Below are positions 1 through 44,757 of a DNA stretch of 64,000 nucleotides, piece after piece. The notes beneath the pieces are model-generated. The model saw only the letters and a program-made list of their open reading frames with translations. It made no database searches and had not been told where the DNA came from. A program made the position numbers and the translations under genes. Source of the stretch: Candidatus Kapaibacterium sp. (GTDB taxonomy: Bacteria > Patescibacteriota > Patescibacteriia > UBA9934); contig JBILHA010000001.1 of NCBI GenBank assembly GCA_044350705.1, forward strand, positions 355,431 through 419,430. The letters are read 5' to 3'. Positions within the stretch are counted from its first letter, which is position 1. Each line of letters starts with the position of its first letter.

Positions 1-1250
1 GCGGCTCATTGATGAGTAGTTTTACCTTTCTATCAAGCAAATCGAGGATCGTTGAATTTTCGTTCAGATTTTCAATCGTATCCCAAAGTAATTTAACTAA
101 AAGGATGTCCTTTGTTTCCGCTAATAATTTTTGATTTTTGGCAGTCAATTTTGTCAGTAATGTCTTTTTGCTCGTCTCATTTTTACCGGAAAAATATTTA
201 TTAATATCATCTTTTGTGAGGTCGTGGATTTTATATTCGGTAATATCCTTGAAATATGTTTTTACTTTTACTTTATTGAGACTCCCAGAGCGGCAAGAAA
301 GTATAATTTTTTTGGTATTATCGTCTTTTTCTAGTTCGTACAAATAGGATAAAACATGGTCGGCTTTTTCGGCACTAAGCTCATCTAATCCGTCCATCAA
401 ATAAATAAACCCCAGTTTTTCATTCCTAACTTTGTAATCATTTTGTCTGTTCCGAATAAGGTTTTCTATAGTATCAAAAGTGCAGTTTTTTAAGTTGATT
501 AACATCGGAACGGCTTTGTTTTTCTGTAAGACTTTTTTAATATCGACCAAACTATTCTTATCTAAACCGGAAAATACTTGAAATAATTTGTGTATGGAAA
601 TGCTTTTACCAGAACCAGGATGGCCTGAAAGTAGAAAGTCTTTTTGTTTTGCCTGCAAAATCTTTTTTGTTATGTCTTCAAGTTTTTCTGTTTTTGAGTT
701 AATAAAAGGAAGGTCAATATATTCAGATGACTGCAAAAAAGTTAAAATTCTTGGATCTGAGCAAGATTTTATAAAGCCAAGTTCATCGCTAAAGTCAAAA
801 TAAAGTTGCGCCAAATCAAGATTTGCGGGTTGGTTCAGCGTCGCTCTGAATTTACTATCAACAAACCATTCAATTTTTATTTTCCCCGCCACTTTTTCAA
901 TATCATCCTTATATTTTGGTTGTTCGCTACCAAAAGATTGATGAGTGAAAATTATAATTCGGTTGAGTTTTTTATAATTTTGCCTCGCTTTTTCTACTGA
1001 TTTCTTAATTTGTTCAATGGAACTAGCTTCTGAAATTTTATTATCAAAAAACTTTGCTTGAAACCCCACATATTCATCTTTTTCATGATCAAAAATCGGA
1101 TATGTCTCAAGTCCAACTTGATTATAATCAACCCGTATCCCTTCTGATTTGGAATATCTGCGACAAAACAAAAAATATGCAAGTTCTTCAAAGCTTTTTC
1201 TATAATCCTCGTTCCTTACCTTGAACTTTTCCCAGCTTATTTTTTGCATA
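1..1250 (-). CDS. STAND NTPase (NACHT-like) with N-terminal Mrr-like PD-(D/E)xK nuclease domain; partial, C-terminus lies outside the window
   Basis: Absent from the ORF track because it has no stop in the window. Manual translation from ATG at 1250 reads MQKISWEKFKVRNEDYRKSFEELAYFLFCRRYSKSEGIRVDYNQVGLETYPIFDHEKDEYVGFQAKFF... with no stop down to position 1. Motifs: Walker A LLSGHPGSGKS, Walker B hhhhDGhDE as IYLMDGLDEL about 68 aa later, and NACHT hhhTSR-type motif IILSCRSGS about 30 aa after that. The N-terminal FEELAYFLF...GLETYPIFD...GFQAKFF resembles the Mrr catalytic core (D...QxK). Confidence 0.6.
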
Positions 1251-1282
1251 ATTACAGCGATTTTCTGGATCTCATTGAGTAC

Positions 1283-1321
1283 CTATACTTTACTATTGTT
1301 TACATGCTTAGTAAAGTATAG
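1283..1321. promoter_or_regulatory. Perfect 13-bp inverted repeat (ctatactttacta-N13-tagtaaagtatag) in the divergent intergenic region, ending 2 nt before the 1324 start codon; putative operator
   Basis: Read directly from the sequence. It lies between the divergent NACHT gene (start 1250) and the 1324 ORF. Confidence 0.4.
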
Positions 1322-1323
1322 CG

Positions 1324-2133
1324 ATGAATATAACTACACAGGCTGAACAAAAACTCATCGTCCAATTTCAAAAATGGTTTGAAACCGAAGAAATCGAGAC
1401 GAAGGTTTTGGAATTAAGGCAACAGATTGGGATACCATCCGAGGGTATTCCCATTACCGACGAAGATTTGAAGCAAATCGGTAGCTTGACCCTAACTCCA
1501 CAAAATCTACCATTCACAGAACGTAGAAAAGTAACCAAGTGTCTTCGTGAATGCTTCGCTGGCACGAGGGAATTTTTAGAAGCACGGCCGCTATTGAATA
1601 ACATGTATTTCAAGCATGTTCTACGGGCATATATCTTGTTTAATAAATTTCTGCTCGATGATGTACGCGCGGCGTTACCAATCGCTCTAAGACTCACGAA
1701 CTTGTGCGACATTAACGATGCGAAGGAAAATATTGAAGAGTATCTTGGTGCTGAAGAAGAGGAATGCAACGATCCAGAGATGCGAGAAATGTATATCGAT
1801 TCGCAAAGATCATTAACCGATCTTTTTCCAATTGCACTTAACATTCATCCAGAGTCAAGTCAACGAGATATTGTTGATTTCATCAAGAAAAACTGGCCAT
1901 ACATTAAAGCTCTACAAGAACGGCGAAAGAACGAAAACTCCAGAGTTCTTCACTCGCGAACCAAAATTAACGAATCAGTTAAAGAACGGAATAAATTGAT
2001 AAACACATGGCACAAAGATGGAATGCGCACTAAGGACATAAGGAAAAAGCTTGCAAGTCAACACCTATTCTTAGATGACGGTCACATTTTGAAGATAATT
2101 TCGATGGCGCGGAAGAAGCGTGAAGGGAAGTGA
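1324..2133 (+). CDS. hypothetical protein (island cargo), predicted mostly helical, no recognisable catalytic motif
   Basis: 269-aa ORF with AT-rich codon usage matching the island. Divergent from the NACHT gene. The antisense ORF 1368-1844 is considered spurious. Confidence 0.5.
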   Translation: MNITTQAEQKLIVQFQKWFETEEIETKVLELRQQIGIPSEGIPITDEDLKQIGSLTLTPQNLPFTERRKVTKCLRECFAGTREFLEARPLLNNMYFKHVLRAYILFNKFLLDDVRAALPIALRLTNLCDINDAKENIEEYLGAEEEECNDPEMREMYIDSQRSLTDLFPIALNIHPESSQRDIVDFIKKNWPYIKALQERRKNENSRVLHSRTKINESVKERNKLINTWHKDGMRTKDIRKKLASQHLFLDDGHILKIISMARKKREGK

Positions 2134-2264
2134 GGTGCAGATAGATTCTGAGCGTCACTTTTTTCTTAGATAAACCATTGTTAACCGGAATAAGCTGAGT
2201 GCAAATGCACTTGGCTTTTATGCTAGAGGATCAAAACTTAAAACCAATCGAAGAGGAGGCGTCA

Positions 2265-2357
2265 ATGCCAGAACTTCCCGAGATAGAAAATCTCGTCGGG
2301 TTTTTTGATCTTCTCATTACAGTCGACAGGCGACTTAACCCTGAACGATATGATTGA
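2265..2357 (+). CDS. 30-aa leader ORF (MPELPEIENLVGFFDLLITVDRRLNPERYD) with strong SD; its stop overlaps the ATG of the downstream gene (ATGATTGA), suggesting translational coupling
   Basis: gaggagg at 2252-2258, five nucleotides, then ATG at 2265. The TGA at 2355-2357 overlaps the candidate ATG at 2350 of the Rep-like gene. Confidence 0.3.
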   Translation: MPELPEIENLVGFFDLLITVDRRLNPERYD

Positions 2358-3468
2358 TACCGTCTGTCTTTCTTTGCCATACAACAGCCTTGTACTTCTT
2401 GATGAAAACAATGAAGCCGTCCCGCAATGGGATCTACAATCTAAGACTGATAATTACTCAAAGTATGTTAGGAATCCTTCCAAGGCTGATAAGCGATCGG
2501 GGCTGTATTTTCCTCGTCTCACGATTTATCGACGTAGATTCGGTCAACAGCCGAGTGTTAAGATTGAGTTTTCTGTTCCAAAGTTAATTTTTAACAACAA
2601 CTTAGAAGAACTATCTGACAAGTACTTTGATCAAGTGATCGATATTTTACAGGAACGACTTCAAAAAATGGGCGTTCGTGTTTTTAAACAGGTTTTAGCC
2701 TCAGCTCCAATTTCAACAATACACTTTTCAAAAAACTTTTCTCTGAGTGATGGTTATACGGCGAGTTACGTTATTTCGGAGTTACAAAAAATCGATTTGA
2801 GAAAGAGTTTCGATTTTGCCAGAGCTAGGTATATCAACAATGGCCAAAGCATCTGTGCCCACACACGGTCACACGAGCTAGTAATCTACGACAAGATCGC
2901 TGATCTTGGCAAAACAAAGAAACGTGCAATAGACAAAGATCAAACAGCGATTCAACTTAGTCTCTTCGACTCCTTGAAATCAAAATATGAATTGGTAGAG
3001 GTTCTCCGTGTTGAAGTGCGTTTATGCAACAAACAGAAAATTAACAGCATCTTCAAGAAGCTGAATATTCCACAAGACCCCACATTTCAAGACGCATTCA
3101 GTAGCAAGGTAAGCAAGGCGGTCATCGATCAGTATTGGGAGTCTGTTGTTAAGGCGGGTCAGATTGCTCTATTCGCAATTGATAAGCCAGCGAAGGAGCT
3201 TTTACGAGAAATGTGCAGAGGGGATCCCAATTTAAAACCCAAGCAAGCGATCTACCAGGTCGGGTTAACGTTACTCGCCAAGGATGGTGACGGATTAACT
3301 GAGCTAAGAAGTATATTTGACGATCGGACAAACGACCGAAGCTGGTACCGAATCAAAAATGATTTCAACCAAATATCCGCCAACATCACTTCGCAACAGA
3401 TCCGCAGCTGGGTAAATCAAATAGAGAAACAGATCAGAACTTATTCACCCATAAAAGTAATAAAATAA
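2305..3468 (+). CDS. hypothetical protein, possibly a Rep_trans-like rolling-circle replication initiator or relaxase (weak, by context); likely true start is ATG 2350
   Basis: 387-aa ORF; the track start is TTG at 2305. It sits immediately upstream of the small ORF, the excisionase and the serine recombinase. No motif could be verified by eye. Confidence 0.45.
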   Translation: MIFSLQSTGDLTLNDMIDTVCLSLPYNSLVLLDENNEAVPQWDLQSKTDNYSKYVRNPSKADKRSGLYFPRLTIYRRRFGQQPSVKIEFSVPKLIFNNNLEELSDKYFDQVIDILQERLQKMGVRVFKQVLASAPISTIHFSKNFSLSDGYTASYVISELQKIDLRKSFDFARARYINNGQSICAHTRSHELVIYDKIADLGKTKKRAIDKDQTAIQLSLFDSLKSKYELVEVLRVEVRLCNKQKINSIFKKLNIPQDPTFQDAFSSKVSKAVIDQYWESVVKAGQIALFAIDKPAKELLREMCRGDPNLKPKQAIYQVGLTLLAKDGDGLTELRSIFDDRTNDRSWYRIKNDFNQISANITSQQIRSWVNQIEKQIRTYSPIKVIK

Positions 3469-3469
3469 T

Positions 3470-3733
3470 ATGGACTGGTTATACATAATTTGGACAGAAA
3501 CATTTCAGCAATTCGCATCGGATAATCTTGGAAGAGAATTGACTGATATTGAGTTAAATCGACTTAGAGTGGCGTTTATTGATAACGACGACGCACAATG
3601 GCAAGTGGCAGATATGATGTATAGCGCTGGAATAGATGCAATGAACAACGCAAGAGGACGATGGAATTTGGTTGATGAAGGTTTCAAGAATGGAAAGTCG
3701 TTGTTTGGTAATTTGATATGTAAAGAAAAGTAA
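3470..3733 (+). CDS. hypothetical small protein (island)
   Basis: 87-aa ORF tightly packed between the Rep-like gene and the excisionase gene. Confidence 0.4.
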   Translation: MDWLYIIWTETFQQFASDNLGRELTDIELNRLRVAFIDNDDAQWQVADMMYSAGIDAMNNARGRWNLVDEGFKNGKSLFGNLICKEK

Positions 3734-3736
3734 AGT

Positions 3737-3931
3737 ATGATGAGTGTAGATATGAGCGATCAACAAGGAAAGTTTTACAAGGCCGAAGAACTTGCAGAGA
3801 TGTTGCAGGTAAATATTATGACGATTTACCGCTACATTAAGTCTGGCAAACTTCAAGCATACAAAATTGGCAAGGAATACAGGATTGATAAAAAGACGTT
3901 TGATCAGTTTTTAAAAAGCGTAAGAACATAG
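3737..3931 (+). CDS. excisionase/Xis-like HTH_17 (MerR-superfamily) DNA-binding protein
   Basis: The sequence EELAEMLQVNIMTIYRYIKSGKLQAYKIGKEYRI matches the HTH_17 excisionase-type motif. It lies immediately upstream of the recombinase. Confidence 0.6.
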   Translation: MMSVDMSDQQGKFYKAEELAEMLQVNIMTIYRYIKSGKLQAYKIGKEYRIDKKTFDQFLKSVRT

Positions 3932-3933
3932 AT

Positions 3934-5502
3934 ATGAAGGCAGTTATTCTTGCACGAGTGTCCACCGAAGAACAAAAGGATGCTGGTAATTCACTTCCAG
4001 CACAGATTCAACGCATTGAATCCTACTGCAGGCGTCAGGGGTTTGAAGTCGTTGAAACGTTCAGCTTCGATGAGAGTGCCTACAAAACTAAGCGTGACGA
4101 ATTCGATAAGATCATTGAATTCCTAAAACAAACGGACGAGAAAATCGTCGTTTGTTTCGATAAGGTCGATCGACTATCACGCAACGTCTTTGACAAGCGA
4201 GTATCCGAACTGTACGAAAAGGCTGTCTCAGATGAGATTGAACTTCACTTCGTGTCCGATGGACAAGTGATCAATAGCCAGATGTCAGCTGTTGAGAAGT
4301 TTCAATTTGGAATGAGCTTGGGATTGGCAAAGTATTACTCAGACGCTATCAGCGACAATGTGCGGCGAGCGTTCGAACAGAAGCGACGTAAAGGCGAAGT
4401 GACTGGTCGATGCGTTCTTGGATATATTAATATTGACGACTTTGAAGGAAACAAATCACTAAAGCCTGATCAGAAGCGTGCGCATCTTATTGTAAAAATC
4501 TTTGAGCTATATTCGACTGGCCTATACTCGATAAAAACCATTCAACAGAAAATCACTCAGCTTGGTTTGTTGAGTCGTGCTGGAAAAGAGTTGACGAAAA
4601 GTACTATAGAACGAATTTTGAATGAGTCGTTTTACTACGGCATGTCTTACTCTCAGAAATATAACGCCTATTATCCGCACAAGTACGAAACGCTGATCAG
4701 TAAGGCTCTCTTCGATAAGTGCCAGCACGTAAAGCTTAAGCGTAAAAAAGCCCCTAGTAAAAACATCGACAAGGATTTTATCCTTGCGGGCTTACTGACT
4801 TGCGAGCATTGCGGATGCACGATCTCGCCCGAGTTCAAACGTAAACCAAGCGGTAAGACCTACAAACTGTATAGCTGCACGAACTCTAAAGGAATCTGTA
4901 AACGTCGTTACGTCAATGAGGATGATCTGCTTAAGCCGATCTATGGCATTTTCGATCTCTTCGAGCAGATTACCGACGAAATTCAGAACCGCCTCATAGA
5001 CGAACTGCGCAAGACCTCTGAAGCTGAGCTTGCATTCCACAAATCTCAGATCGCTCGCATCCAAATGGAGCATGGCAAGCTGACGGATAGGAAGAGCCGA
5101 TTGCTCGACGCCTTCCTCGATCAGAGTATTACTAAGCCAGATTATGACAAAAAGTTGCAAGAGATCATGGACCGCATCCAAACACTTGCCATGGAAATCG
5201 AAGAACATTCTCGAGCAGACCATGATTACAAAACGACGGTAGCCACGGTACTTTCCGTGGCTCGTCGTGCCAATGAAATCTTTGAAGGTGCTGAATTGCA
5301 CGAGAAACGTGAATTCATCAATTTCCTCGTTCAGAACCCGAAATTAAAGGATAGGGAATTGGTCTTCGAGCTGAAACATCCAATGAATACGGTACTAGAA
5401 TTGGCTCACTACTCATCCCAAAAACAAAAAGCGACCAGTATTTCTACTGATCGACCTTCTTGGCTCCGGGGCTGGGGCTCGAACCCAGGACCAATTGGTT
5501 AA
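3934..5502 (+). CDS. large serine recombinase (resolvase catalytic domain, recombinase domain and C-terminal zinc ribbon)
   Basis: The N-terminal MKAVILARVSTEEQ carries the catalytic Ser in the conserved ARVST context. The zinc ribbon reads CEHCGC...YSCTNSKGIC. Total length is 522 aa. The 3' end overlaps tRNA-Asn. Confidence 0.85.
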   Translation: MKAVILARVSTEEQKDAGNSLPAQIQRIESYCRRQGFEVVETFSFDESAYKTKRDEFDKIIEFLKQTDEKIVVCFDKVDRLSRNVFDKRVSELYEKAVSDEIELHFVSDGQVINSQMSAVEKFQFGMSLGLAKYYSDAISDNVRRAFEQKRRKGEVTGRCVLGYINIDDFEGNKSLKPDQKRAHLIVKIFELYSTGLYSIKTIQQKITQLGLLSRAGKELTKSTIERILNESFYYGMSYSQKYNAYYPHKYETLISKALFDKCQHVKLKRKKAPSKNIDKDFILAGLLTCEHCGCTISPEFKRKPSGKTYKLYSCTNSKGICKRRYVNEDDLLKPIYGIFDLFEQITDEIQNRLIDELRKTSEAELAFHKSQIARIQMEHGKLTDRKSRLLDAFLDQSITKPDYDKKLQEIMDRIQTLAMEIEEHSRADHDYKTTVATVLSVARRANEIFEGAELHEKREFINFLVQNPKLKDRELVFELKHPMNTVLELAHYSSQKQKATSISTDRPSWLRGWGSNPGPIG

Positions 5503-5535
5503 CAGCCAACTGCTCTACCACTGAGCTACCCCGGA
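5461..5535 (-). tRNA. tRNA-Asn (anticodon GTT), CCA encoded
   Basis: Reverse complement folds as a canonical cloverleaf: acceptor UCCGGGG/CCCCGGA, D arm GCUC-AGUGGUA-GAGC, anticodon stem GUUGG/CCAAU with loop CUGUUAA, T arm CUGGG-UUCGAGC-CCCAG, discriminator G, then CCA. Confidence 0.9.
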
Positions 5536-5971
5536 ATAGAAAGTTTTGTAACGGGACATAGGATAACAAATGCTCCTTTCTCGTGCAAGGTGAAGATGGG
5601 AAGAAAATATTTCTCTGCGTCGCTTTGCGATGTGATCGCCTATGGTTTGAGGATGTTTGAGGCAGAAACAAAAAAACAAGCCAGTAAAGGTTTGCTTTTT
5701 TGGGGAGCGGTTTGCTTACTTTGCGTTTGCAGTAGCTTCCAATTTGCGCATGCGGATTGCCTTTGCCTTGCGGCGTTTTGCAAATCCGTCTTCACGCTTG
5801 ATGGCAAAAGCGGCATTTTGCGCTTTGCGGGAAAGTTTATGGCGGGATGGCATAAGAGGTAAAAACAATGCAAAGATACTACTTTATTCACCAACTTTGG
5901 TCAAATCTTTCCAAGAGTTTATGGGGAAAAGTGCTTGACGGAATGTCATTTCTTCGCCAAAACAGGGACAT

Positions 5972-7468
5972 ATGCATATTGCCGTTTCAAAAGGCCGTCT
6001 CTCGCAAAGCGGTGCTGAGGTGTTGGTTGTTCCGGTTCTTTCGGGAAAGAGCTTGGCGGGAATTCCGGTATTAGGAAATGATGCGCTGCGACGCGCGGAA
6101 CGTCTGGCAAAGGCGCAGGATTTTACGGGAAAGGCAGGTGAGGTTCTTTCCCTTCCGGCACCTGAAGGGCATGGCGCTGATGTACTGTTGTGTATTGGGG
6201 TGGGAGAGAAGCGTTCCGCATCTTTTTTGGATGCAGTCCGAGATATGGGCGGGAATGCGGTGCAGGTTGCAAAAAAGATGGGCCTTCGTACGATTGCTGC
6301 TGATTTCTCTGCGAAGGAAATGATGCATGCGGATGCGGTGGAAGCTTTTGTGACCGGTATTCTTTTAACGAATTATGCGTTTGATGCGTATAAAAAACAA
6401 AATGGCGCTAAGCGTGTTGCGGAGGTAGATATCCTGCTCCCGGATAGTCGCATGACGCTTGTGCTCCGCAAAACCATCGAGCGTGTCCAGGGGGTGATGG
6501 CGGGCGTGAATATCGCGCGCGATCTCGTTAATATCCCCGCGCATGACATGACACCTGAGCGTTTGGCGGAAGCTGCACAAGAAATTGCAAAAGAATCCGG
6601 AGGAACGATTAAAGTAAAGGTCCTTGAACGTGCGGAGTGTCAGAAGCTGGGTATGGGCGCCTATCTTGCGGTTGCGCAGGGTGCTGATCGTGATCCAAAG
6701 TTCATCACGCTTTCTTATACTTCTCCGCGTCCTGCAAAAAAGAATGTTGCGGTTATTGGAAAGGGAGTGACGTTTGATTCGGGGGGATTATCCATTAAAC
6801 CTGCGGATAGCATGATGACCATGAAGTGTGACATGGCAGGTGCCGCAGCGGTGATCGGATTGTTTGCGGTACTCGGCAAACTCCGTCCTCGGGTAAACAT
6901 TCGTGGGTATATCGCGGCAACGGAAAATATGCCTTCCGGAAACGCGGTTCGCCCAGGGGATGTGGTCCGCTCCATGTCAGGCAAAACGATTGAAGTGCTC
7001 AATACGGATGCAGAAGGTCGTCTCACGCTTGCGGATGCGCTTACCTATGCGTTGCGCGAAAAGCCGGACATGATGGTTGATCTTGCTACTCTTACCGGTG
7101 CTTGTATGGTAGGACTTGGAGAAGAGATCGCAGGTCTCATGTCAAATGATCGCGGTCTTGCGAAGGATGTACTCAAGAGCGCGAAAGATGCGGGAGAGAA
7201 GTTGTGGGAAATGCCGCTTGAACCGCGCTACCAGCAACTGATTCAAAGTGATATTGCTGATTTGCGGAATATTGCAACCAGCAGATATGGAGGATCGCTG
7301 ACCGCTGGACTCTTTTTGCAAGAATTTGTGGAGGAGACGCCATGGGCGCATCTTGATATCGCAGGTCCTGCGTTTGCGGAGCGACCCATGGGCGTATGTC
7401 TTCAGAAGGGCGCTACGGGATATGGAGTACGGACGCTTTGGAAGTGGGTTGAGGGGATGGGGAAGTAG
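5972..7468 (+). CDS. pepA: leucyl aminopeptidase (M17 family)
   Basis: M17 signature NTDAEGRLTLADAL plus the conserved VGKGVTFDSGG region. Confidence 0.85.
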   Translation: MHIAVSKGRLSQSGAEVLVVPVLSGKSLAGIPVLGNDALRRAERLAKAQDFTGKAGEVLSLPAPEGHGADVLLCIGVGEKRSASFLDAVRDMGGNAVQVAKKMGLRTIAADFSAKEMMHADAVEAFVTGILLTNYAFDAYKKQNGAKRVAEVDILLPDSRMTLVLRKTIERVQGVMAGVNIARDLVNIPAHDMTPERLAEAAQEIAKESGGTIKVKVLERAECQKLGMGAYLAVAQGADRDPKFITLSYTSPRPAKKNVAVIGKGVTFDSGGLSIKPADSMMTMKCDMAGAAAVIGLFAVLGKLRPRVNIRGYIAATENMPSGNAVRPGDVVRSMSGKTIEVLNTDAEGRLTLADALTYALREKPDMMVDLATLTGACMVGLGEEIAGLMSNDRGLAKDVLKSAKDAGEKLWEMPLEPRYQQLIQSDIADLRNIATSRYGGSLTAGLFLQEFVEETPWAHLDIAGPAFAERPMGVCLQKGATGYGVRTLWKWVEGMGK

Positions 7469-7529
7469 TTGGGTTGAAGAAAAGAGACTTTCGACGTATG
7501 CTGTCTTTAGTCTTTTTTCTTATCTTGTT

Positions 7530-8765
7530 ATGCATCCTGTCTTCAAAAATACGTACGTTTTTACGGCTATTGGTGCCATTGTCCTTGGCGCACTTCTTTA
7601 TGGAGGGAAGCAGTATCTTGCTGCGCGTGAGCTCGCACGTCTTGAGGAAAATCGTATCGAAGGTGGATGGTATGAGACGCCGGTTTCTTTTGAGGGAGCA
7701 TGGCACCTCGTTCCTCCGGGTGAGATTTATTCTTCTGGTATTGAGGAGGGGGATATTCCTGCGCTCACACAGCCAAATCTCATGAGCGTTGATGAAGCGG
7801 ACGACGTTATTGCTGATGACCTTGGAGGTATCGCGGTAGAAATCCAGGGCAAGCATCGCTTTTATCCGGTGCAGATCATGAATTGGCACGAAGTCGTGCA
7901 CGATACCATTGGTGGGGAATCCGTTTTGGTGTACTACGGACCGCTTACCGGAGCTGCGGCAGTGTATCGGCTTCCAGAAAATATGCGTTTTGTGGTGAGT
8001 GGTCGTGGGTATAACAACGATATCCTTTTGAAACAGGAAGGTACTGAGACCCTTTGGTCCGGCATTTTGGGTATGCCTGTTGTAAGCAGCCGTGAAGCTG
8101 ACCTTGATGCATCTCTTGAGCGCCTTCCATCTTCTTTCATGACTTGGAAGGAATGGCGTGATGCACATCCCGATGGAACGGTTCTTTCTACGGATACCGG
8201 GCATGCGCGCGACTATACACGTCATCCTTACGGAAATTATGAAAATTCCGTTGGCGTATATTTCCCGGTAAATCGTACGACCTATTCCGTTCGTGCAAAA
8301 GAACCTGCATATCTTGTGCAAAGCGAAGGTGCATTTGGTGTTTTTGTTAAAACTGCAACGATACTTGATGAAACTCCGTCGGTTCTTCTTGGAGATGCCT
8401 GTATTGTTGGCTTGCATGAAGCATCTGGCTCGCAAATTTTCTTGTATTCTTGTGAAGTGAATGGCCGTACGCTTACGTTCCGTCGTGTTGAACCGGGTGT
8501 ATTTACCGATGAAGAAACGGGTTCTCGTTGGAATGCATCGGGCCGCGCAGTATCCGGTGAACTTACGGGTGCGCAACTTACCGTTGTTCCTTCAGTACGC
8601 TTGTATAGTTTTATTGCCGATGCATTGTTCCCTCAAGCGGTAATTGCGGGTGAGGAATTTGTACTTCCGCAAACACTTTCTGAAGATGAAATTTCCTCCG
8701 CTGATAATGCTCCGGTTATAGAAGGAGAGAATGTTGATGGTGCAACGGTTGAAGTTGTTCAGTAG
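7530..8765 (+). CDS. DUF3179 domain-containing membrane-anchored protein
   Basis: N-terminal TM helix MHPVFKNTYVFTAIGAIVLGALLY. The core HEVVHDTIGGESVLVYYGPLTGAAAVY...FVVSGRGYNNDILL...TGHARDYTRHPYGNY fits the DUF3179 pattern. The track ORF starts earlier at 7326 and overlaps the pepA end. Confidence 0.6.
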   Translation: MHPVFKNTYVFTAIGAIVLGALLYGGKQYLAARELARLEENRIEGGWYETPVSFEGAWHLVPPGEIYSSGIEEGDIPALTQPNLMSVDEADDVIADDLGGIAVEIQGKHRFYPVQIMNWHEVVHDTIGGESVLVYYGPLTGAAAVYRLPENMRFVVSGRGYNNDILLKQEGTETLWSGILGMPVVSSREADLDASLERLPSSFMTWKEWRDAHPDGTVLSTDTGHARDYTRHPYGNYENSVGVYFPVNRTTYSVRAKEPAYLVQSEGAFGVFVKTATILDETPSVLLGDACIVGLHEASGSQIFLYSCEVNGRTLTFRRVEPGVFTDEETGSRWNASGRAVSGELTGAQLTVVPSVRLYSFIADALFPQAVIAGEEFVLPQTLSEDEISSADNAPVIEGENVDGATVEVVQ

Positions 8766-8779
8766 CGCTTAAGAGCAGA

Positions 8780-9472
8780 ATGTATACCTGTATGCTCTAT
8801 ATCGTTGCTACTCCCATTGGAAATAGAAACGACATCACGGAGCGAGCGAAGCAAACGCTCGCTTCTGTTGATGTTGTGCTTTGTGAAGATACGCGTGTTA
8901 CGGCGAAGTTGTGTAGCATGCTTGAAATTCAGCCTACGCTTCATACCTTTCACGAACATACCGACGATCGCAAGCGTGGAGAGATTGTTGCGCAACTTGT
9001 TGCAGGAAAGAGCATGGCGCTTGTGAGCGATGCGGGTACGCCGGGGATTTCTGATCCGGGAGGCATGCTTGTTGCTGATGCGGTAAAAGCGGGAGTTGAA
9101 GTTGTTCCGATTCCGGGAGTATCGGCGGTTGCTACGGCGCTTTCAGTTTGCGGTTTTCCTACAGCGCGTTTTACGTTTGTAGGATTTCCTCCCCAAAAGA
9201 AAGGACGAGAAACATTTTTTAGAGAGCTTGGAGATATTGCGCATACGATCGTGCTGTATGAGTCTACGCATCGCATTGAGAAAACGATTGAAGCGCTTGG
9301 TGTGCTTGGTCGTCGGTTGTGTGTTTGTCGAGAGCTGACCAAGATGCATGAGACGATTTATCGAGGTACTGCATCTGAAGTTCTTGCCGCGCTTGCAAAA
9401 ACAAGTACGAAGGGGGAGTTTGTGATTGTGGTCGCTCCTCGTGTTCGTGAAAGTATTGAAGTTGTTGAATAA
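8780..9472 (+). CDS. rsmI: 16S rRNA (cytidine1402-2'-O)-methyltransferase
   Basis: LYIVATPIGNRNDITERA...VDVVLCEDTRV matches the tetrapyrrole-methylase fold typical of RsmI. Confidence 0.8.
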   Translation: MYTCMLYIVATPIGNRNDITERAKQTLASVDVVLCEDTRVTAKLCSMLEIQPTLHTFHEHTDDRKRGEIVAQLVAGKSMALVSDAGTPGISDPGGMLVADAVKAGVEVVPIPGVSAVATALSVCGFPTARFTFVGFPPQKKGRETFFRELGDIAHTIVLYESTHRIEKTIEALGVLGRRLCVCRELTKMHETIYRGTASEVLAALAKTSTKGEFVIVVAPRVRESIEVVE

Positions 9473-9480
9473 AAAAAATC

Positions 9481-9519
9481 CCCCACACGACGTCGCCGTT
9501 CGCGAACGTTCGTGTGGGG
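9481..9519. terminator. 10-bp perfect stem hairpin (ccccacacga...tcgtgtgggg) preceded by an A8 tract; rho-independent terminator for the minus-strand gene 9534-9944, possibly bidirectional
   Basis: Read directly from the sequence. Confidence 0.5.
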
Positions 9520-9533
9520 TACGTTGACCTAGA

Positions 9534-9944
9534 TTAGGCCTCGTCGTTTTTTCCCCCACGTCCTGCCGCGGGGGTGAGAGCGTCATCCGGGGGGAGGATG
9601 ACGAATGGGGCCACTGGCAAATTTACCGTCGGCAACATTCTCGACGGAAGTTTCTCGTATACGGCTTTCAGAGCTTTCGTGGCCTCTTCCTTATGTTTCC
9701 CCTCAGCGATCCGCCTTTCGATGAGTCCGAAAAGCGTCTCCATGTTCCCACCTCCCCAGAAGTAAGTGCTGATTGCACCTACAGCCTCAGTGATCTTTCC
9801 CTGTATGATGAGGTGACTGATCTCCTCAACGACCTGATCAATGTCGCTCGCCTCCGCCGCGGTGGGGGTGAGCACCATCATCACCGCGGGGGTGATGGGG
9901 GCGAGGGCGAGGACGATGCGGAGGAGGGCGGGGGCGATCTTCAT
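9534..9944 (-). CDS. small secreted protein (signal peptide MKIAPALLRIVLALAPITPAVMMVLTPTAAEA); function unknown
   Basis: SD GGGAGA lies 6 nt before ATG at 9944. The 5' half is GC-rich. The promoter is supplied by 48-bp repeat copy 1. Confidence 0.5.
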   Translation of the reverse strand: MKIAPALLRIVLALAPITPAVMMVLTPTAAEASDIDQVVEEISHLIIQGKITEAVGAISTYFWGGGNMETLFGLIERRIAEGKHKEEATKALKAVYEKLPSRMLPTVNLPVAPFVILPPDDALTPAAGRGGKNDEA

Positions 9945-9996
9945 GCTGTCTCCCATGTCGGGTTTTCGGCGGAAGTGCCGAAAAATGCGACCGGTA

Positions 9997-10044
9997 TTTA
10001 TACCATATTTTTAGCTTTTTTTTAAGTATTTGAAGAACGAGCTT
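9997..10044. repeat. 48-bp direct repeat copy 1 (tttataccatatttttagcttttttttaagtatttgaagaacgagctt); on the minus strand it forms a sigma70-like promoter (-35, 17-nt spacer, TATAAA)
   Basis: 47 of 48 positions identical with the copy at 10630-10677. It sits about 40 nt upstream of minus gene 9534-9944. Confidence 0.6.
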
Positions 10045-10140
10045 TATTAGATTCGTATATTTTGCTGAGTTCGTCAGTGAGGTCGGGATTGTTCACGTGG
10101 TGATGTGATCACGGTGGAGTTTAAGAAATAAAAACAGAAC

Positions 10141-10166
10141 GCCCTGCACTCGTGAAAGTGCAGGGC
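10141..10166. terminator. hairpin gccctgcac-tcgtgaaa-gtgcagggc flanked by an A-rich tract; terminator for minus gene 10182-10541
   Basis: Read directly from the sequence. Confidence 0.55.
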
Positions 10167-10181
10167 AAGCGGAAGGGGGGG

Positions 10182-10541
10182 TCAGTACGTGTGCGTGCCG
10201 ATGCACACGTACCTCCCATCATCGAACATTTCCGGTGGGTCTACGATCTCCCCGTAGGAAATGTAGACCTCCTCCTCCTTGTTGACGCAGAGCGTGGACG
10301 AGGCCCCCGGCGGGCACGTGGCCCAGAAGCTGGGCGGCTCCTCCTCTCCCCCGATGGGGACCATGAGGAAGTCCCCCTCCTTCCCCGGGAGGATGACCGT
10401 GGCGGTCTCCTCGCCCTCGTCGACCTCGACGCAGGCGAAGCTCCAACCGTCGGAGACCTCCTGCTCGAACGCCTCCACGCAGGAGACGGTGGCCTCGCTG
10501 CAGCCGGTGGTGAGGGAGAGGGCGAGGGTGGCGGTGCGCAT
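10182..10541 (-). CDS. small secreted/lipoprotein-like acidic protein with 6 Cys; function unknown; about 65% GC
   Basis: SD AGGAG lies 6 nt before the ATG. The N-terminus MRTATLALSLTTGCS is signal-peptide or lipobox-like. Codons are strongly GC3-biased, unlike neighbouring genes. Confidence 0.5.
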   Translation of the reverse strand: MRTATLALSLTTGCSEATVSCVEAFEQEVSDGWSFACVEVDEGEETATVILPGKEGDFLMVPIGGEEEPPSFWATCPPGASSTLCVNKEEEVYISYGEIVDPPEMFDDGRYVCIGTHTY

Positions 10542-10629
10542 GGTGAACTCCTGCCTTTGGGTAAGAAACCCGAGGCTTCCAACGAAATGTCACTTCTTTG
10601 ACGAAATTGCCATTGAACGTGACATGTTT

Positions 10630-10677
10630 TTATACCATATTTTTAGCTTTTTTTCAAGTATTTGAAGAACGAGCTTC
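10630..10677. repeat. 48-bp direct repeat copy 2; minus-strand TTGAAA-N17-TATAAA promoter upstream of gene 10182-10541, in the divergent region shared with metG
   Basis: See copy 1. Confidence 0.6.
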
Positions 10678-10735
10678 TTTCCAGTACGATTTCTTGCATC
10701 ATCTTGATTCCCGTTTTTTAGCACTTTTTCTTCCT

Positions 10736-12223
10736 ATGTCTCGTTTTATTACCGCTTCTATTCCTTATGTAAATTCCACACCGCATGTGGGATATGCACT
10801 TGAGCTCATTCAGGTCGATGCGCTTCTTCGGTATTACCGCACACGAGGCGAGGTAGTTCGCGGGCAATTTGGCAGTGATGATAATAGTTTGAAAAATGTG
10901 CGTGCGGCGAAAGAGGCAGGGGAGACGACCGAGGCGTTTGTTGCACGACATGCAGAAGAGTTTCGTAAGCTTTCCGATATTCTTCAGCTTGATGCATCGG
11001 TGCGTCACTTTATTCGAACGCGAGATGACGTGCACATGCGGGGTGCGCAGAAGCTTTGGAGCATGTTTCGACCTGAAGACATCGATAAGCGTTCGTACGA
11101 AGGGTTGTACTGCGTAGGTTGCGAGGCTTTTTATTCGCAAGAAGATCTTCTTGAAGGAAAGAATTGTCCTACGCACAAGAAGCCAGTTGAAGTTATTCAA
11201 GAAGAAAATTATTTCTTCAAACTTTCCAATTATCAATCTTTTTTTGAGGAGTTGCTTACACAGGGTGTTGCAACGTGGCAGGGAAAGGAGCATCGCATGA
11301 CGATTGTTCCTGAAGAGCGACGTAATGAAATGTTGGCGTTTGCCAAGAAGTTGGAAGACTTTAGCATTTCGCGTTCCGTGCAACGTGCAGAAAACTGGGG
11401 AGTTCCTGTTCCGGGCGATGAAAGTCAGGTGATGTATGTATGGGTTGATGCGCTTTCGAACTATATTACCGGCTTAGGTTTTGCTGATGACGCACAAGAA
11501 TTTGCAGAATTTTGGACGAACGCTGATGTACGAACGCATGTTATTGGAAAAGACATTGTGCGCTTCCATGCAATTTATTGGCCAGCCTTTTTGCTTTCTG
11601 CAGGTCTCCCACTTCCTACCGAGATTTTTGTGCATGGCTTTCTTACGGTTGAAGGGGAGAAGATGAGTAAGTCGTTGGGCAATGTGGTGCGCCCGCAGGA
11701 GATGATTGATGTGTACGGTGTTGATGCGACGCGATATTTGCTTCTTCGTGATCTTCCCTTGGTGGGAGATGGTGATATTTCAAAAGATCGACTTGAGGAG
11801 CGCTATAACGAACTTGCAAATGGATTGGGGAATTTGGTTGGACGTGTTGCCGCCATGGCGAATAAGTATTTTGACGGTGTGCTTGATGTGGTTGATGTGC
11901 ATTATGCTGGATTTGATGCCGCATTTGCTGATGTACTGCATGCCGCACTCACGTCTCGTGATTTCAAGCGATATCTTGAGATTGTGCAGGATTTGGTAGG
12001 CGTTGCGAATAAGAAGATTAATGATGAAGAGCCGTTCCGAACCGCAAAGACCGATCTTCTTGCATGTAAGAAAACACTTTCCGAAGTTGCGGCGATGATT
12101 CGTGCGATTGCTGAAGCATATGCGCCCGTCATGCCTTCAATGAGTGCAGAAATCCTTGCGCGGTATAATGGTGAAAAGATTATTCACGGAGAGCCGTTGT
12201 TTCCGAAGCGAGACGAAGCATGA
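10736..12223 (+). CDS. metG: methionyl-tRNA synthetase, compact form (496 aa) lacking the C-terminal tRNA-binding domain
   Basis: N-terminal MSRFITASIPYVNSTPHVGY is HIGH-like and a KMSKS motif is present. The track ORF starts upstream at 10598. Confidence 0.9.
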   Translation: MSRFITASIPYVNSTPHVGYALELIQVDALLRYYRTRGEVVRGQFGSDDNSLKNVRAAKEAGETTEAFVARHAEEFRKLSDILQLDASVRHFIRTRDDVHMRGAQKLWSMFRPEDIDKRSYEGLYCVGCEAFYSQEDLLEGKNCPTHKKPVEVIQEENYFFKLSNYQSFFEELLTQGVATWQGKEHRMTIVPEERRNEMLAFAKKLEDFSISRSVQRAENWGVPVPGDESQVMYVWVDALSNYITGLGFADDAQEFAEFWTNADVRTHVIGKDIVRFHAIYWPAFLLSAGLPLPTEIFVHGFLTVEGEKMSKSLGNVVRPQEMIDVYGVDATRYLLLRDLPLVGDGDISKDRLEERYNELANGLGNLVGRVAAMANKYFDGVLDVVDVHYAGFDAAFADVLHAALTSRDFKRYLEIVQDLVGVANKKINDEEPFRTAKTDLLACKKTLSEVAAMIRAIAEAYAPVMPSMSAEILARYNGEKIIHGEPLFPKRDEA

Positions 12224-12705
12224 TATTTATGCAACCCTACATCATCGACATCATCTTTGGAGTTCTTGCGCTCGTGCTTTTTGTGTATGGGTGGCGAAAA
12301 GGATTTGTGCGAATGGCGGGAGGTATGGTGAGTTTGGTGGTGAGTGTTGTTGCGGGTATTTGGGGAGTGGAGTGGATCGAAGACGTTCTCGGCATTCCGC
12401 TTTCGGCGACGTTTTTTGGATTGATTTTCGCTTTTCTCACAATTGCGGTCATTGTCAGTGCCATGCTGAATCTTGTGGTTACGCTTCTCGATTTACTTCG
12501 TCGATTGCTTACGATGATTCCGGGTGTTGGATTTATCCATCGGCTTGCGGGTGCTTTTGTAGGCGTGCTTGAAGTGGGAGTTCTGATTCTCGGTGTAAGT
12601 TATGCTGCAGTGTATATTCTTGTTGAAAGTGAGCACCGTACGCTTTTGCTTTCCTCGCAAGTTGTCGGATACGGCGTTCGTGTTCTTGAACAGGTGATGT
12701 TTTGA
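12220..12705 (+). CDS. cvpA: CvpA family membrane protein
   Basis: IIDIIFGVLALVLFVYGWRKGF is the typical CvpA N-terminus. Multiple TM helices. The ATGA start overlaps the metG stop. Confidence 0.65.
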   Translation: MIFMQPYIIDIIFGVLALVLFVYGWRKGFVRMAGGMVSLVVSVVAGIWGVEWIEDVLGIPLSATFFGLIFAFLTIAVIVSAMLNLVVTLLDLLRRLLTMIPGVGFIHRLAGAFVGVLEVGVLILGVSYAAVYILVESEHRTLLLSSQVVGYGVRVLEQVMF

Positions 12706-14298: not shown

Positions 14299-14431
14299 AT
14301 GCATGAGAAGGGTCCCAGACGTTTATTTCTTTTTGAGAAACAAGAGCGTGGGTAAGGGATTTGAAAGAGAGCTCGATTTTTTGATAGCGTGTTTCTAGGC
14401 TGGCATCTTGCCTGCCTTCAAGGGGGAACCA

Positions 14432-14619
14432 TGCTTCTTGGGCATGAACCGATCCAAGAACCGGACCAGCAGGGGGACAAGAAGCCGCCCCCGCCTCCTC
14501 GTCCGCCGTGGCCGGGTTATCCCGGCCGTCGTCGACCTGAGCAGGATCCTCAGATGCCGCCCATCCGGCGGCCGCCGCTGCCCGGATGGGGGGATGATCG
14601 TCCGCCCATCGAGGCCTAG
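14432..14619 (+). CDS. candidate small Pro-rich ORF in a GC-rich insert (very uncertain; all frames are open here)
   Basis: aaggggga precedes ATG at 14432. The product MLLGHEPIQEPDQQGDKKPPPPPRPPW... is low complexity. Confidence 0.2.
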
Positions 14620-14736
14620 GGGCCTCGCGCGCGACATCCAGGTCGCTGTCGCCCTTCATTGGGTGGCGGCGGCATCTTCGGATGTCGCTTTTCTTTTTGA
14701 CCATCGCTTTTCATTTCGATACACTTTTTCCATTCT

Positions 14737-16536: not shown

Positions 16537-16581
16537 GGAGTAGGGGGAGTGAGGGGAGTTGGGGGAGTGAAGGGACGGATC

Positions 16582-16605
16582 AACGTATCCGTCCCTTTGT
16601 GTTTT
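16582..16605. terminator. 9-bp stem hairpin gggacggat-caacgt-atccgtccc followed by a T-rich tract; alaS terminator (bidirectional with the minus small-protein operon)
   Basis: Read directly from the sequence. It is preceded by the degenerate G-rich repeats at 16542-16580. Confidence 0.6.
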
Positions 16606-16691
16606 AAAAGAGAGAAGCCCCGGCCGGCGAGATGCCGGACGGGGCGCGAGCGCGAGGGCCGTGCGAGGCCCGGGCGCTTGGGTGGGGGGGG

Positions 16692-16883
16692 CTAGCCCCC
16701 GACGATGGCCACGAGGGTGGCCAGGAAGAGAACGATTCCCAGGCCCACGAGGACCCAGGCGCCACTTTTCGTGGTGTTTTCGGCCGAGGTCGTTCCGACG
16801 ATCGCGGTCCGCATCTCACGCGTGTTCATGTTCGGGGTGATCCCCGGATAGCGGTTGTCTGCCATTTTCTGTCTACGTGCCAT
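16692..16883 (-). CDS. small tail-anchored membrane protein (63 aa), GC-rich
   Basis: SD AAGGGGA lies 4-5 nt before the ATG. The C-terminal helix is GAWVLVGLGIVLFLATLVAIVGG. Confidence 0.4.
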   Translation of the reverse strand: MARRQKMADNRYPGITPNMNTREMRTAIVGTTSAENTTKSGAWVLVGLGIVLFLATLVAIVGG

Positions 16884-16945
16884 GCAGTCCCCTTGACGTG
16901 TGGCTTGTCCGTCGGCTTGAGACCGACAGACGGGGGGGTGAGAAC

Positions 16946-17110
16946 TCAGAACGTCCGGATGAAGTCCGAGACGTCCGAGAGGAAGGGGCTTAAAAGCCCC
17001 TGGTCATCGGCTTCCCTGAGGGCGAACCAGAGGGGAAGACCGAAGAAGATCGCGATTATGACGAGGCATCCGCCTCGTCCCCCCGGTGGTGGGGCGTTTT
17101 GTTCCTCCAT
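16946..17110 (-). CDS. small single-TM protein (54 aa; MEEQNAPPPGGRGGCLVIIAIFFGLPLWFALREADDQGLLSPFLSDVSDFIRTF); below the ORF-track length cutoff
   Basis: Manual translation. SD AGGAGA lies 4 nt before the ATG. It is immediately upstream of the 63-aa gene on the same strand. Confidence 0.35.
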   Translation of the reverse strand: MEEQNAPPPGGRGGCLVIIAIFFGLPLWFALREADDQGLLSPFLSDVSDFIRTF

Positions 17111-17318
17111 CGTTTCTCCTGAATTGGCTGAAAAAGCGTAGCAAAAAATGCTGCTTTTTACAACTCTGTGAGGGTCTTTTTTCTCCTTTTTGATGACTCT
17201 TGTGGAAATGATTAGGTTTTCTTGACGTTATCCTGTATAGTTTCCTTGACCAAATACTTATTCTTTTCTATACTTATTGCGCTTTCAATTTAATGCTGAG
17301 AGCGCCACAAGCCCGCTT

Positions 17319-21296: not shown

Positions 21297-21345
21297 TTGT
21301 AAAGGTTCTTTTTACAAACACCATCTCTTTTTTGGGATGGTGTTT
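21297..21345. terminator. tandem hairpins after rpsI (ttgtaaa...tttacaa and aaacaccatc...gatggtgttt); likely operon terminator
   Basis: Read directly from the sequence. The T tract lies mainly inside the second loop. Confidence 0.4.
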
Positions 21346-21409
21346 GTATATAGGCAAGCGATCATGTCGCTTCCCGTGATGCGCTTGATGGCGCATGACG
21401 GGAGGTGAC

Positions 21410-21928
21410 ATGGCACGACGCCGAGTATTGCACGGCGGCTACGAGCCGTCGCCGGCATTTTTACAAAACAATCCTGCCTGGCGGCGGCAGGGTGGAGGTG
21501 GTAAACCTCAGAGCGAGGCGACTTCGCTCCATCATCTTCTGCCCCGTTCGCGGGGCGGATCAAATGGCGGTACCAACCTGGTCCGCCTGCCTCATGCTTG
21601 GCATGAGGCGTGGCATTGGGCCTTCGGACTTGCCACGCCCGATGAGGCGGTGACGTGGCTTGCAGGTGGTGAGGAGTGTCCCCTGGAGGCGTGGGGGACG
21701 TGCGAGCCTTCAGAGATGAGGCTTCGCGCGCTGTTCCCCCTCTCGTCAGGGGGCTTCTCCCGTGCCCGCCTGGTTGCCCTGCTCACCGCGGTGCTGCAGG
21801 GGAATCTCGTGTGGAGTACTCGGGCCCTTCTCCGCTTTGCCGAGATGACCGAAAAGAAGAGCAGTCGCTTGGAATTGGCGGAGCGGGCCGTTCATGAGCG
21901 GCAAAGTCGTCGGCCGCTTCGCTACTAA
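21410..21928 (+). CDS. small HNH-motif protein (cysteine-less HNH: LHHLLPRSRGGSNGGTNLVRLPHAWHEAWH), about 65% GC
   Basis: Strong SD GGGAGGTG before ATG at 21410. His-Asn-His spacing is typical of the HNH bba-Me motif. The track ORF starts at 21395. Confidence 0.45.
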   Translation: MARRRVLHGGYEPSPAFLQNNPAWRRQGGGGKPQSEATSLHHLLPRSRGGSNGGTNLVRLPHAWHEAWHWAFGLATPDEAVTWLAGGEECPLEAWGTCEPSEMRLRALFPLSSGGFSRARLVALLTAVLQGNLVWSTRALLRFAEMTEKKSSRLELAERAVHERQSRRPLRY

Positions 21929-21965
21929 ACCGCCACTTCCTCGCAAGGAAGTGGCGGTTCATCGT

Positions 21966-43873: not shown

Positions 43874-43910
43874 AATGTGAGGCCCCGTAGTGAGGCCTCA
43901 CATTTTATTT
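43872..43910. terminator. 13-bp stem hairpin aaaatgtgaggcc...ggcctcacatttt followed by ATTTT
   Basis: Read directly from the sequence. Confidence 0.75.
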
Positions 43911-44247
43911 TGTAAATAGAGCTAATCCCTATAGGACCCCTAAATCAACCCAGGCCATTTAAATGCGTTGTCCAAATGGAGCCTTCTGAAGCCTCACGAT
44001 GAACATCTTGGAATTGATGTTGCGCCAAGTATCTTGTAACGGCTTGGCATGTCTTGGTGACAAACCCCATTTGCTAGGTGAGAGTACCCGTTGATCCTGC
44101 TAACTATCTTAGGTAGAAAACTGGCTATGGTTCGTAAATGATATATTGTACGACTCAACCGAATACACAACATCATAAACAGAAAACACCCAAAGGATGC
44201 CCCTCAGGTGTTTCCCTACTCTACCCGTGGAGATTACCATCTGGGCA

Positions 44248-44757
44248 TTATTTTTGAGCGGTACCTTGATAAGTGCCCGTGCAGTATTCTTCCTCTTGCA
44301 CATCAAGCACGCACGTAAATGGCACCGTATTCTCACCAAGCTTGGGAAGCGCAGTGCAGGTCACCTTCCCTTCTGGAGTTTCGATTCCAGAAACGCGTGA
44401 CTCACTGGTGAAGAACATTCCGAGTGAAAGGTCACGCTGTTCGTCCGCTGATGCGACGTAATAACCTTTCACATCATCAAAGTAAAACGTGAAGGTTTCT
44501 AGACCCTTCTCGACGCACGTTCCTTCGCCATTTGAAAAGGTATAGAGCGTATATCCATTTTCTTGCCCTGGAACGCTTGGTGTTTTCTTGGTGTACCAAA
44601 TGGTATTTTCGAGCTCCGCAAGAGGAACCGGTTTGCTTTGCGCTTTTTGGCCCACTGAGGCACTTTCTTCTGGTTCATTTTCTTGTGACGTACAACCTGC
44701 ACCAACAAGACTGAAGGTGCTTACTGCAAGAAGTGCAGCGAAGATTTTTTTATACAT
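44248..44757 (-). CDS. lipoprotein, function unknown
   Basis: Lipobox LVGAGC. Confidence 0.55.
   Translation of the reverse strand: MYKKIFAALLAVSTFSLVGAGCTSQENEPEESASVGQKAQSKPVPLAELENTIWYTKKTPSVPGQENGYTLYTFSNGEGTCVEKGLETFTFYFDDVKGYYVASADEQRDLSLGMFFTSESRVSGIETPEGKVTCTALPKLGENTVPFTCVLDVQEEEYCTGTYQGTAQK

Follow-up and report, generated by a model that had tools for sequence, protein, structure and literature searches.

In the erp or upstream homology box (UHB) lipoprotein loci of Borrelia burgdorferi, which are carried by cp32 prophages, a conserved promoter, operator and leader stand before diverse, partly unrelated exposed parts of small exported proteins (PMC10016077). The locus described here lies in a 64,000-nt stretch of the genome of an uncultured, ultra-small bacterium of the Patescibacteria (Candidatus Kapaibacterium sp., contig JBILHA010000001.1, positions 355,431 to 419,430; hereafter the window) and places two small genes, orfA and orfB, behind two copies of one 48-nt repeat, all within an insertion between the genes for a 16S rRNA 2'-O-methyltransferase (rsmI) and methionyl-tRNA synthetase (MetRS, gene metG). 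The vlp genes of Mycoplasma hyorhinis are also of interest in this context, as their promoter spacer carries a poly(A) tract, as Citti and Wise are said to have described in 1995. In integrons, the cassettes are promoterless, each has an attC site of imperfect inverted repeats at its 3' end, and IntI, attI and Pc are adjacent to them.

We read the present locus, with a probability of about 0.6, as a recently acquired insertion that brought two self-contained, co-regulated small-protein units sharing a promoter module into an accessory-gene slot. Each unit would be monocistronic and would consist, in order, of an extended −10 sigma-70-type promoter within the repeat core, a 5' stem-loop, a Shine-Dalgarno (SD) sequence, a small ORFan coding sequence and an intrinsic terminator. 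The two units would be old, already diverged relatives at their 5' ends (promoter, hairpin and perhaps the start of the signal peptide) that are joined to unrelated coding bodies. In such an arrangement orfA and orfB would be co-expressed from the common promoter, the 5' hairpin could act as an mRNA stabilizer or as an operator, and the product of orfA, less surely that of orfB (possibly a lipoprotein), may be exported to the cell surface to act on a host or on neighboring cells.

The insertion and its site

Comparison of the window by blastn with four close relatives (L087–L090, obtained via the RsmI 90% cluster) reveals one lineage-specific insertion of ~1.2 kb at positions 9488–10714. The flanks of these relatives are ~96% identical to the window and their rsmI-metG spacer is just 41 nt long, and the segment is therefore one recent insertion. 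In L087, positions 147–3964 align with window positions 5670–9487 at 95.9% identity and positions 3970–5965 align with window positions 10715–12703, with the entire inserted segment standing opposite 5 nt. Homology at the junctions is short (CCCACA on the left and CATCAT on the right, of the original CCCACATCAT), and neither a long target duplication nor a terminal inverted repeat was found at the insertion junctions by junction comparison and an inverted-repeat scan. The inserted DNA spans both terminators, both copies of the repeat and a plus-strand promoter facing metG, and its two units are arranged head to tail on the strand opposite to the surrounding genes. The terminator of orfA is a composite, its U-tract and 7 nt of its stem being host sequence that is also present in the empty site. 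Judged from the divergence of the flanks, the insertion is younger than the ~4% that separates the window from the empty-site relatives.

Five independent assemblies from different samples agree completely over the locus (100% identity), with one single-nucleotide polymorphism seen, in rsmI, and the locus is therefore no assembly chimera. Two independent short assemblies (L002 and L003, starting at window positions 9021 and 9392) both end at 10704, at the right-hand junction (10702–10714), which hints at strain heterogeneity at the right boundary in those samples. As a separate observation, metG is less conserved in L087 and L088 (87%) than the upstream flank of these two relatives (96%). A possible imported recombination tract reaching into rsmI or metG was also considered, and divergence close to the junctions proved only slightly elevated. 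The spacer at 10067–10134 was examined as a possible leftover from the 3' end of an rsmI gene, in which case the insert would consist of two stacked slot "alleles"; its resemblance to the window rsmI is marginal (5 of 500 shuffles), and the idea was dropped because it was not reproduced with the nearly identical rsmI end of L087 or with other relatives.

The relatives of the window MetRS are metagenome-assembled genomes of Patescibacteria, across which the genes for a DUF3179 protein, rsmI and metG are syntenic. The gap between rsmI and metG is ~60 nt in several of these lineages and is occupied in others. The slot of L004 is 1.4 kb long (4620–5963) and holds ORF6N, a membrane protein and HicB/HicA; that of L006 is 1.1 kb long (4898–5945) and holds NUDIX and ORF6N; and those of L005, L020, L021 and L022, of ~0.5 kb, hold a membrane protein or a GIY-YIG nuclease (L020 5509–5928; L022 3514–3810). 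The slot cargo of the relatives (HicA/HicB, ORF6N, NUDIX hydrolase and GIY-YIG) is encoded on the plus strand throughout. In this family, mobile or accessory genes have repeatedly landed in the rsmI-metG slot.

Promoter cores, leaders and coding regions

The 48-nt direct repeat (AAAGCTAAAAATATGGTATAAA) occurs exactly twice in the window, with 0 copies expected by chance; the two copies are 632 nt apart and identical at 47 of 48 positions. The repeat reported in the original prediction is real, and its second copy lies one base to the left of where it had been placed. A repeat finder extends the repeat to 111 nt (9955–10065 and 10587–10697) at 75% identity. Outside the core, 25 of 42 positions are identical on the leader side and 11 of 21 on the other side (~57%), and beyond these flanks identity falls to a random 17–27%.

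Sigma-70 promoters have a −35 hexamer TTGACA and a −10 hexamer TATAAT, the latter with A at position 2 and T at position 6, spaced 16–18 nt apart. On the minus strand each core reads TT(A/G)AAA, 17 nt and TATAAA, with TATGg upstream as an extended −10. The promoter spacer begins with a tract of seven or eight A residues (A7 or A8), which is identical in all five assemblies. Sigma-70-like promoters (TTGACC, 17 nt, TA.ACT) are also present upstream of infA and alaS in the window.

The outward plus-strand promoter at the right end of the insert ends 45 nt before the ATG of metG, and within core B its −35 hexamer stands back to back with the minus-strand −35 hexamer, 4 nt apart. Copy A has a decayed counterpart, TTGAAG (10030–10035), 17 nt and TCGTAT (10053–10058), which points into the 3' end of orfB. 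From these hexamers, the 48-nt core is predicted to be a back-to-back (bidirectional) promoter region. The metG promoter lies inside the insert and is absent from the closest relatives, and it therefore came with the insert; an origin ancestral to the site was rejected on these grounds, despite 18 of 29 positions being identical to the metG promoters of L014 and L005. In relatives whose site is empty, transcription of metG has to come by read-through from rsmI. The insertion would cut metG off from the rsmI operon, and the outward TTGAAG-17-TACGAT probably restores its transcription.

Each gene possesses, as originally described, its own leader hairpin, SD sequence and downstream terminator (Table 1). 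Both terminators are strong, with folding z-scores of −4.4 for orfA and −5.7 for orfB. The two hairpins begin equally far from the −10 hexamer, share one pairing register and have 6-nt loops. Three pairs are changed on both sides (5–33 from G-C to A-U, 10–29 from U-A to C-G and 13–26 from C-G to U-A) and one further pair is altered to G-U; the three compensatory changes indicate that the leader hairpin has been maintained. Together with the ~57% identity of the repeat flanks, the divergence of only ~4% in the genome flanks indicates that the cassettes diverged before their arrival, the near-identity of the core having been kept by selection or by later conversion. Within the signal-peptide codons, a 22-nt stretch is identical at 19 positions (LALAPIT versus LALSLTT), a weak similarity whose score is reached by 22 of 500 codon shuffles.

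In a Sec signal, positive charge at the N-terminal end is followed by a hydrophobic core and then by an AXA cleavage site. The N terminus of the orfA protein begins MK..R, reaches a Kyte-Doolittle value of 2.4 in an 11-residue window (hand calculation) and offers an AEA/S site, and the protein is on these features probably Sec-exported. Its model, computed without an alignment, shows a confident four-helix core at residues 34–98 (predicted local distance difference test, pLDDT, ~90), a fold that matches generic helical bundles only. A weak GGGCGA run in the signal region of orfA is the sole tandem repeat found. The orfB gene has the traits first ascribed to it, being GC-rich (66%), with a high GC content at third codon positions (GC3), six cysteines and an acidic product. 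Its LTTG-C14 motif fits a loose PROSITE-style lipobox pattern, although the cysteine falls before residue 15 and the hydrophobic region is weak; the protein is possibly lipid-anchored. The orfA protein has no lipobox. The mature parts of the two proteins show no similarity at the nucleotide or protein level, in agreement with the earlier view that they are unrelated.

No homologue of orfB was found in an exhaustive HMMER scan of 1.84 billion representatives, and neither gene has a match in Pfam, NCBIfam, PHROGs or PADLOC, or among phages and plasmids by blastn; one candidate match (P0003) was discarded as repetitive and spurious. Rfam gave no relevant match in 9400–10800 (E-value mode), and an RNA explanation of the locus is excluded by strong three-base periodicity.

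In terms of composition, the third codon positions of host genes contain T 0.40, G 0.28, A 0.19 and C 0.12 (GC3 0.4–0.5; ~0.5 in ribosomal protein genes). The corresponding values are C 0.55 and G 0.38 in orfB, and C 0.60 and G 0.31 in codons 1–45 of orfA, whose GC3 is 0.71 overall and 0.9–1.0 over the first 45 codons. The comparison of codon usage with host genes, suggested at the outset, marks the insert as compositionally foreign (GC3 0.93 and 0.71 versus 0.4–0.5). Expression-linked codon bias was ruled out as the source of the high GC3, as ribosomal protein genes reach only ~0.5, and so was a lagging-strand effect, as complementing the third-position profile of host genes would yield an A-rich one. 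An SD-like motif precedes 5 of 60 host-like open reading frames (ORFs), versus 11% in random 14-mers, and both orfA and orfB have a canonical SD sequence. A T occupies position −1 in 35 of the 60 host ORFs (TATG).

The same foreign-looking signature is observed elsewhere, without the 48-nt module. A GC-rich island on the minus strand downstream of alaS (16540–17150) contains two small ORFs with transmembrane segments and lacks the 48-nt module: one at 16946–17110 (54 aa, AGGAG SD) and one at 16692–16883 (63 aa, GC3 0.80, partial AAGGGGA motif). A high-GC3 ORF lies between tatD and sua5 in L004, and another occurs in L050. In a related clade, a syntenic ORFan convergent to tatD is present on the minus strand (in locus coordinates, L007 4644–5177, L009 ~9000–9700 and L012 9179–9655), in genomes of ~50% GC; its GC3 is 0.77–0.94, and a strong promoter (TTGACT, 17 nt, TGgTATtAT), a structured leader, AAGGAG and a terminator are kept while the proteins are ~20% identical. 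No homologues or families were found for this ORFan. Its high GC3 has outlived speciation, for which simple recent transfer offers no obvious explanation; this persistence hints that, beyond recent transfer, a gene-specific process or selection keeps such mRNAs GC-rich and SD-led. The cumulative GC skew of the window peaks at ~43000–44500, where gene orientation turns from plus to minus (convergent), as would be expected at a replication terminus; few genes run against replication, and orfA, orfB and the small ORFs at 16.7–17.1 kb belong to these.

Table 1. Positions of the insert, its predicted elements and the flanking genes in the window
Feature	Position	Strand	Details
rsmI (16S rRNA 2'-O-methyltransferase), left flank	8780–9472	+	
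Insertion with both cassettes	9488–10714		blastn; junction sequences; absent in four close relatives
orfA intrinsic terminator	9473–9519	−	stem 9481–9490/9510–9519, then U8; z-score −4.4
orfA, 136 aa	9534–9944	−	Sec-like N terminus (AEA/S), four-helix core 34–98, Pro-rich tail; ORFan
orfA Shine-Dalgarno GGGAG	9950–9954	−	5 nt before ATG
orfA 5'-proximal leader hairpin	9957–9991	−	folding; same pairing register as orfB hairpin
Promoter core copy A	9997–10044	−	−35 TTAAAA 10020–10025; −10 TATAAA 9997–10002
orfB intrinsic terminator	10125–10167	−	stem 10141–10150/10157–10166, then U-rich tail; z-score −5.7
orfB, 119 aa	10182–10541	−	isoelectric point (pI) 4.05, 6 Cys, GC3 0.93, lipobox-like LTTGC; ORFan
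orfB Shine-Dalgarno AGGAG	10548–10552	−	6 nt before ATG
orfB 5'-proximal leader hairpin	10588–10624	−	folding; three compensatory double changes versus orfA hairpin
Promoter core copy B	10629–10676	−	−35 TTGAAA 10652–10657; −10 TATAAA 10629–10634
Outward promoter facing metG	10662–10690	+	TTGAAG 10662–10667, 17 nt, TACGAT 10685–10690; right end of insert
metG (methionyl-tRNA synthetase), right flank	10736–12223	+	

Explanations for the locus and the wider window

Several observations weigh against the reading of the locus as a recent insertion of two co-regulated small-protein units. The minus-strand core promoters were not called by a consensus promoter scanner, as their −10 hexamer ends in A and not in T; of the sigma-70 promoter claimed for each copy, the hexamers and the 17-nt spacing stand, without such a call. 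The claim that both genes encode signal-peptide proteins is plausible for orfA, with its Sec-like N terminus and cleavage site, and is weak for orfB, whose N terminus (MRTATLALSLTTGC) is short and weakly hydrophobic (Kyte-Doolittle maximum 1.3, hand calculation). The structure model of the orfB protein is poor (pLDDT 40), and in word-index searches of 5.8 billion protein clusters both proteins returned self-matches only. A fuzzy search allowing ≤12 mismatches in 48 found no third copy of the module in the 64-kb window with 18 kb of flanking genome (L084 and L085), in the four close relatives or in ~1 Mb of related loci. None of its exact 41-, 22- and 21-mers occurs in GTDB representative genomes, JGI metagenome contigs or IMG/VR, a weak negative as these collections do not contain the source genome. 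The cassette "family" rests on two copies only. An antisense ORF of 147 aa (10158–10601, plus strand) is annotated in place of orfB on the Logan SRR27428177 and JGI/NCBI 3300059473 copies of the contig, and the public annotations of the locus are thus inconsistent. The identity of the cores could have arisen through local gene conversion instead of selection, and, should SD sequences really go unread by the host ribosome, those in the insert may be leftovers from the donor and not working signals.

The original prediction had taken the 48-nt module as the mark of a modular cassette array of exported effectors, bacteriocins or adhesin-like peptides; that it denotes a multi-copy, genome-wide or mobile family, with this locus as a small array, now seems unlikely. 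The divergence of the units before insertion (57% flanks and compensatory hairpin changes against genome flanks at ~4%) does imply other members somewhere, and further SD-led, high-GC3 small ORFans occur at 16692–16883 and 16946–17110 and in other Patescibacteria loci. However, those GC-rich small genes lack the module, and no further copy was found in 82 kb of genome, in the relatives and related loci or in the public collections, so that what survives of the proposal is two independent units, diverged before arrival, and not an array or a genome-wide system. An identity as bacteriocins, effectors or adhesins finds no support either: there are no family matches, the export signal of orfB is weak, and within ±5 kb we found no double-glycine (GG) leader, immunity gene, ABC transporter or peptidase of the kind that accompanies a class II bacteriocin or microcin. 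The N termini of both proteins are Sec-like and not of the GG type, and the nearby cvpA (12220–12705) is syntenic in relatives without cassettes. A capture of the promoter in place is in our view no more probable than such a family. Here the site would first have received a pair of unrelated foreign genes, and a promoter region, resident or incoming, would afterwards have been duplicated or gene-converted in front of the second, the repeat being a chance product of local duplication and no family trait. Promoter capture would account for the presence of only two copies 632 nt apart, for the sharp bounds of the core (98% identity), as expected of a short conversion tract, and for the useless decayed outward promoter of copy A (TTGAAG-17-TCGTAT). 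Against it, the homology continues past the core into the leader (25 of 42 positions, the same hairpin register and three compensatory changes) and, weakly, into the signal-peptide codons (19 of 22 nt, with 22 of 500 codon shuffles reaching the score), and a recent local copy would not leave flanks at 57%.

Still less likely, we judge, is that the region is inert DNA imported from a high-GC organism, or is mis-annotated with the plus-strand ORF at 10158–10601 as the real gene. It is true that both proteins are ORFans, that different gene callers choose different strands, that many frames stay open in high-GC DNA and that the host does not use SD sequences. The GC content by codon position is nevertheless 0.58/0.48/0.93 in orfB, with GC3 far above GC1 and GC1 above GC2, versus 0.86/0.46/0.57 in the antisense ORF, and this mirror image indicates that the strand of orfB is the coding one; promoter, SD sequence and terminator are also all on the minus strand. 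That strand further carries intact ORFs, well-spaced SD sites, terminators and a selectively maintained hairpin, the orfA protein folds confidently, and the insert is invariant across five assemblies. A more far-reaching idea than the preferred reading of a recent two-unit insertion is that orfA and orfB belong to an unrecognized class of self-contained "plug-in" cassettes that circulate among Patescibacteria and land between core genes, an outward promoter rescuing the gene downstream; we regard this as doubtful. The traits of such a class, put forward just as tentatively, would be the promoter core, 5' hairpin, SD sequence, ORFan exported or membrane protein and terminator, with a GC3 of 0.8–0.95 against ~0.45 in a host without SD sequences.

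Attachment to other microbes is the presumed way of life of members of the candidate phyla radiation (CPR)/Patescibacteria, and to our knowledge almost all of their surface and secreted proteins are of unknown function. The locus represents a dated gain of two probably exported ORFans together with their own regulatory kit, the sister genomes being empty at this site. It also exposes a split within one genome, between host genes with T-rich third positions and no SD sequences and a few small inserted genes with SD sequences and 90% G/C third positions. If this split were general, it would allow CPR genes that are recently imported or specially expressed to be recognized by a simple sequence signature and would raise the question of how an SD-led message is translated in an otherwise SD-less lineage. 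At present, the locus is one well-characterized example.

Three further features of the window were observed. Downstream of rpsI, a GC-rich (60–69%) element of ~660 nt on the plus strand (21300–21965) folds with a minimum free energy of −368 kcal/mol (z-score −14 versus shuffles) into a chain of long near-perfect hairpins with a terminator-like stem at 21928–21959, shows no codon periodicity and has no Rfam match even at E ≤1. An ORF within it (21395–21928) contains an HNH-like motif recognized by eye (HHLLPRSRGG..N..H) and has no Pfam match, and from its predicted folding the element is a candidate for a novel large structured RNA or a palindrome array. Between sua5 and alaS lies a second GC-rich (68–71%) island (14395–14700) with no coding periodicity, a plus-strand folding z-score of −4.8 and a terminator-like hairpin (14668–14689) just before the alaS promoter; it is present in L087 and L088, the sua5-alaS gap is only 55 nt in L004, and Rfam gives no match. 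The low-GC (33–45%) segment at 1–5535, which continues to the left in L085, encodes a large serine recombinase (3934–5502) and an HTH_17 excisionase-like protein, abuts tRNA-Asn (5461–5535) and is probably an integrated mobile element or prophage remnant.

Comparison with known systems

In its arrangement the locus is unlike an integron, although it shares with integron cassette arrays the head-to-tail order of short single-gene units at one site. Each unit here has its own promoter, and there are no attC-like palindromes at the borders, no IntI and no attI; inverted-repeat scans of the locus for attC gave only the two terminators and the leader hairpins. The neighbors are the genes for the DUF3179 protein, rsmI and metG, and the sole recombinase is the large serine recombinase of the separate low-GC element. 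The locus is not an integron. A closer parallel in terms of location is provided by the accessory-gene hotspots, or "genomic islets," of naturally transformable bacteria, in which the same pair of core genes brackets different cargo, close relatives have an empty site, and, as here, there is no integrase, long target duplication or terminal repeat at the locus. The present cargo differs from that of genomic islets in being unusually small and compositionally extreme, in having a promoter, SD sequence and terminator for each gene, and in supplying an outward promoter for the downstream core gene.

With respect to gene organization, the locus is loosely reminiscent of the Mycoplasma vlp, vsp and vpma families, in which genes for small surface proteins stand in tandem, their 5' regions highly conserved and their mature parts divergent. 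Unlike those families, it has no tandem coding repeats beyond the weak GGGCGA run, its A-tract is invariant in five assemblies, and there is no adjacent site-specific invertase; a lipobox-like motif is present in orfB only. The erp/UHB loci share with it a regulatory segment common to genes with unrelated bodies, which consists here of the core (47 of 48 positions) and the homologous leader hairpin. The differences from erp/UHB are that there is no homology to Erp, OspE or OspF proteins and that the copies are two and in tandem on a chromosome, not many and allelic on prophage plasmids. In erp/UHB the leader peptide and the first mature residues are conserved, whereas here the leader peptide seems barely conserved and orfA lacks a lipobox. 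The core in the present locus is also bidirectional by prediction, would in addition serve a housekeeping gene, and has no known operator-binding proteins. In homology, copy number and phase-variation features the locus thus fits neither the erp/UHB nor the vlp families. It is nevertheless a variation on a known kind of design, in which a shared promoter and leader are combined with unrelated bodies, and not a new system.

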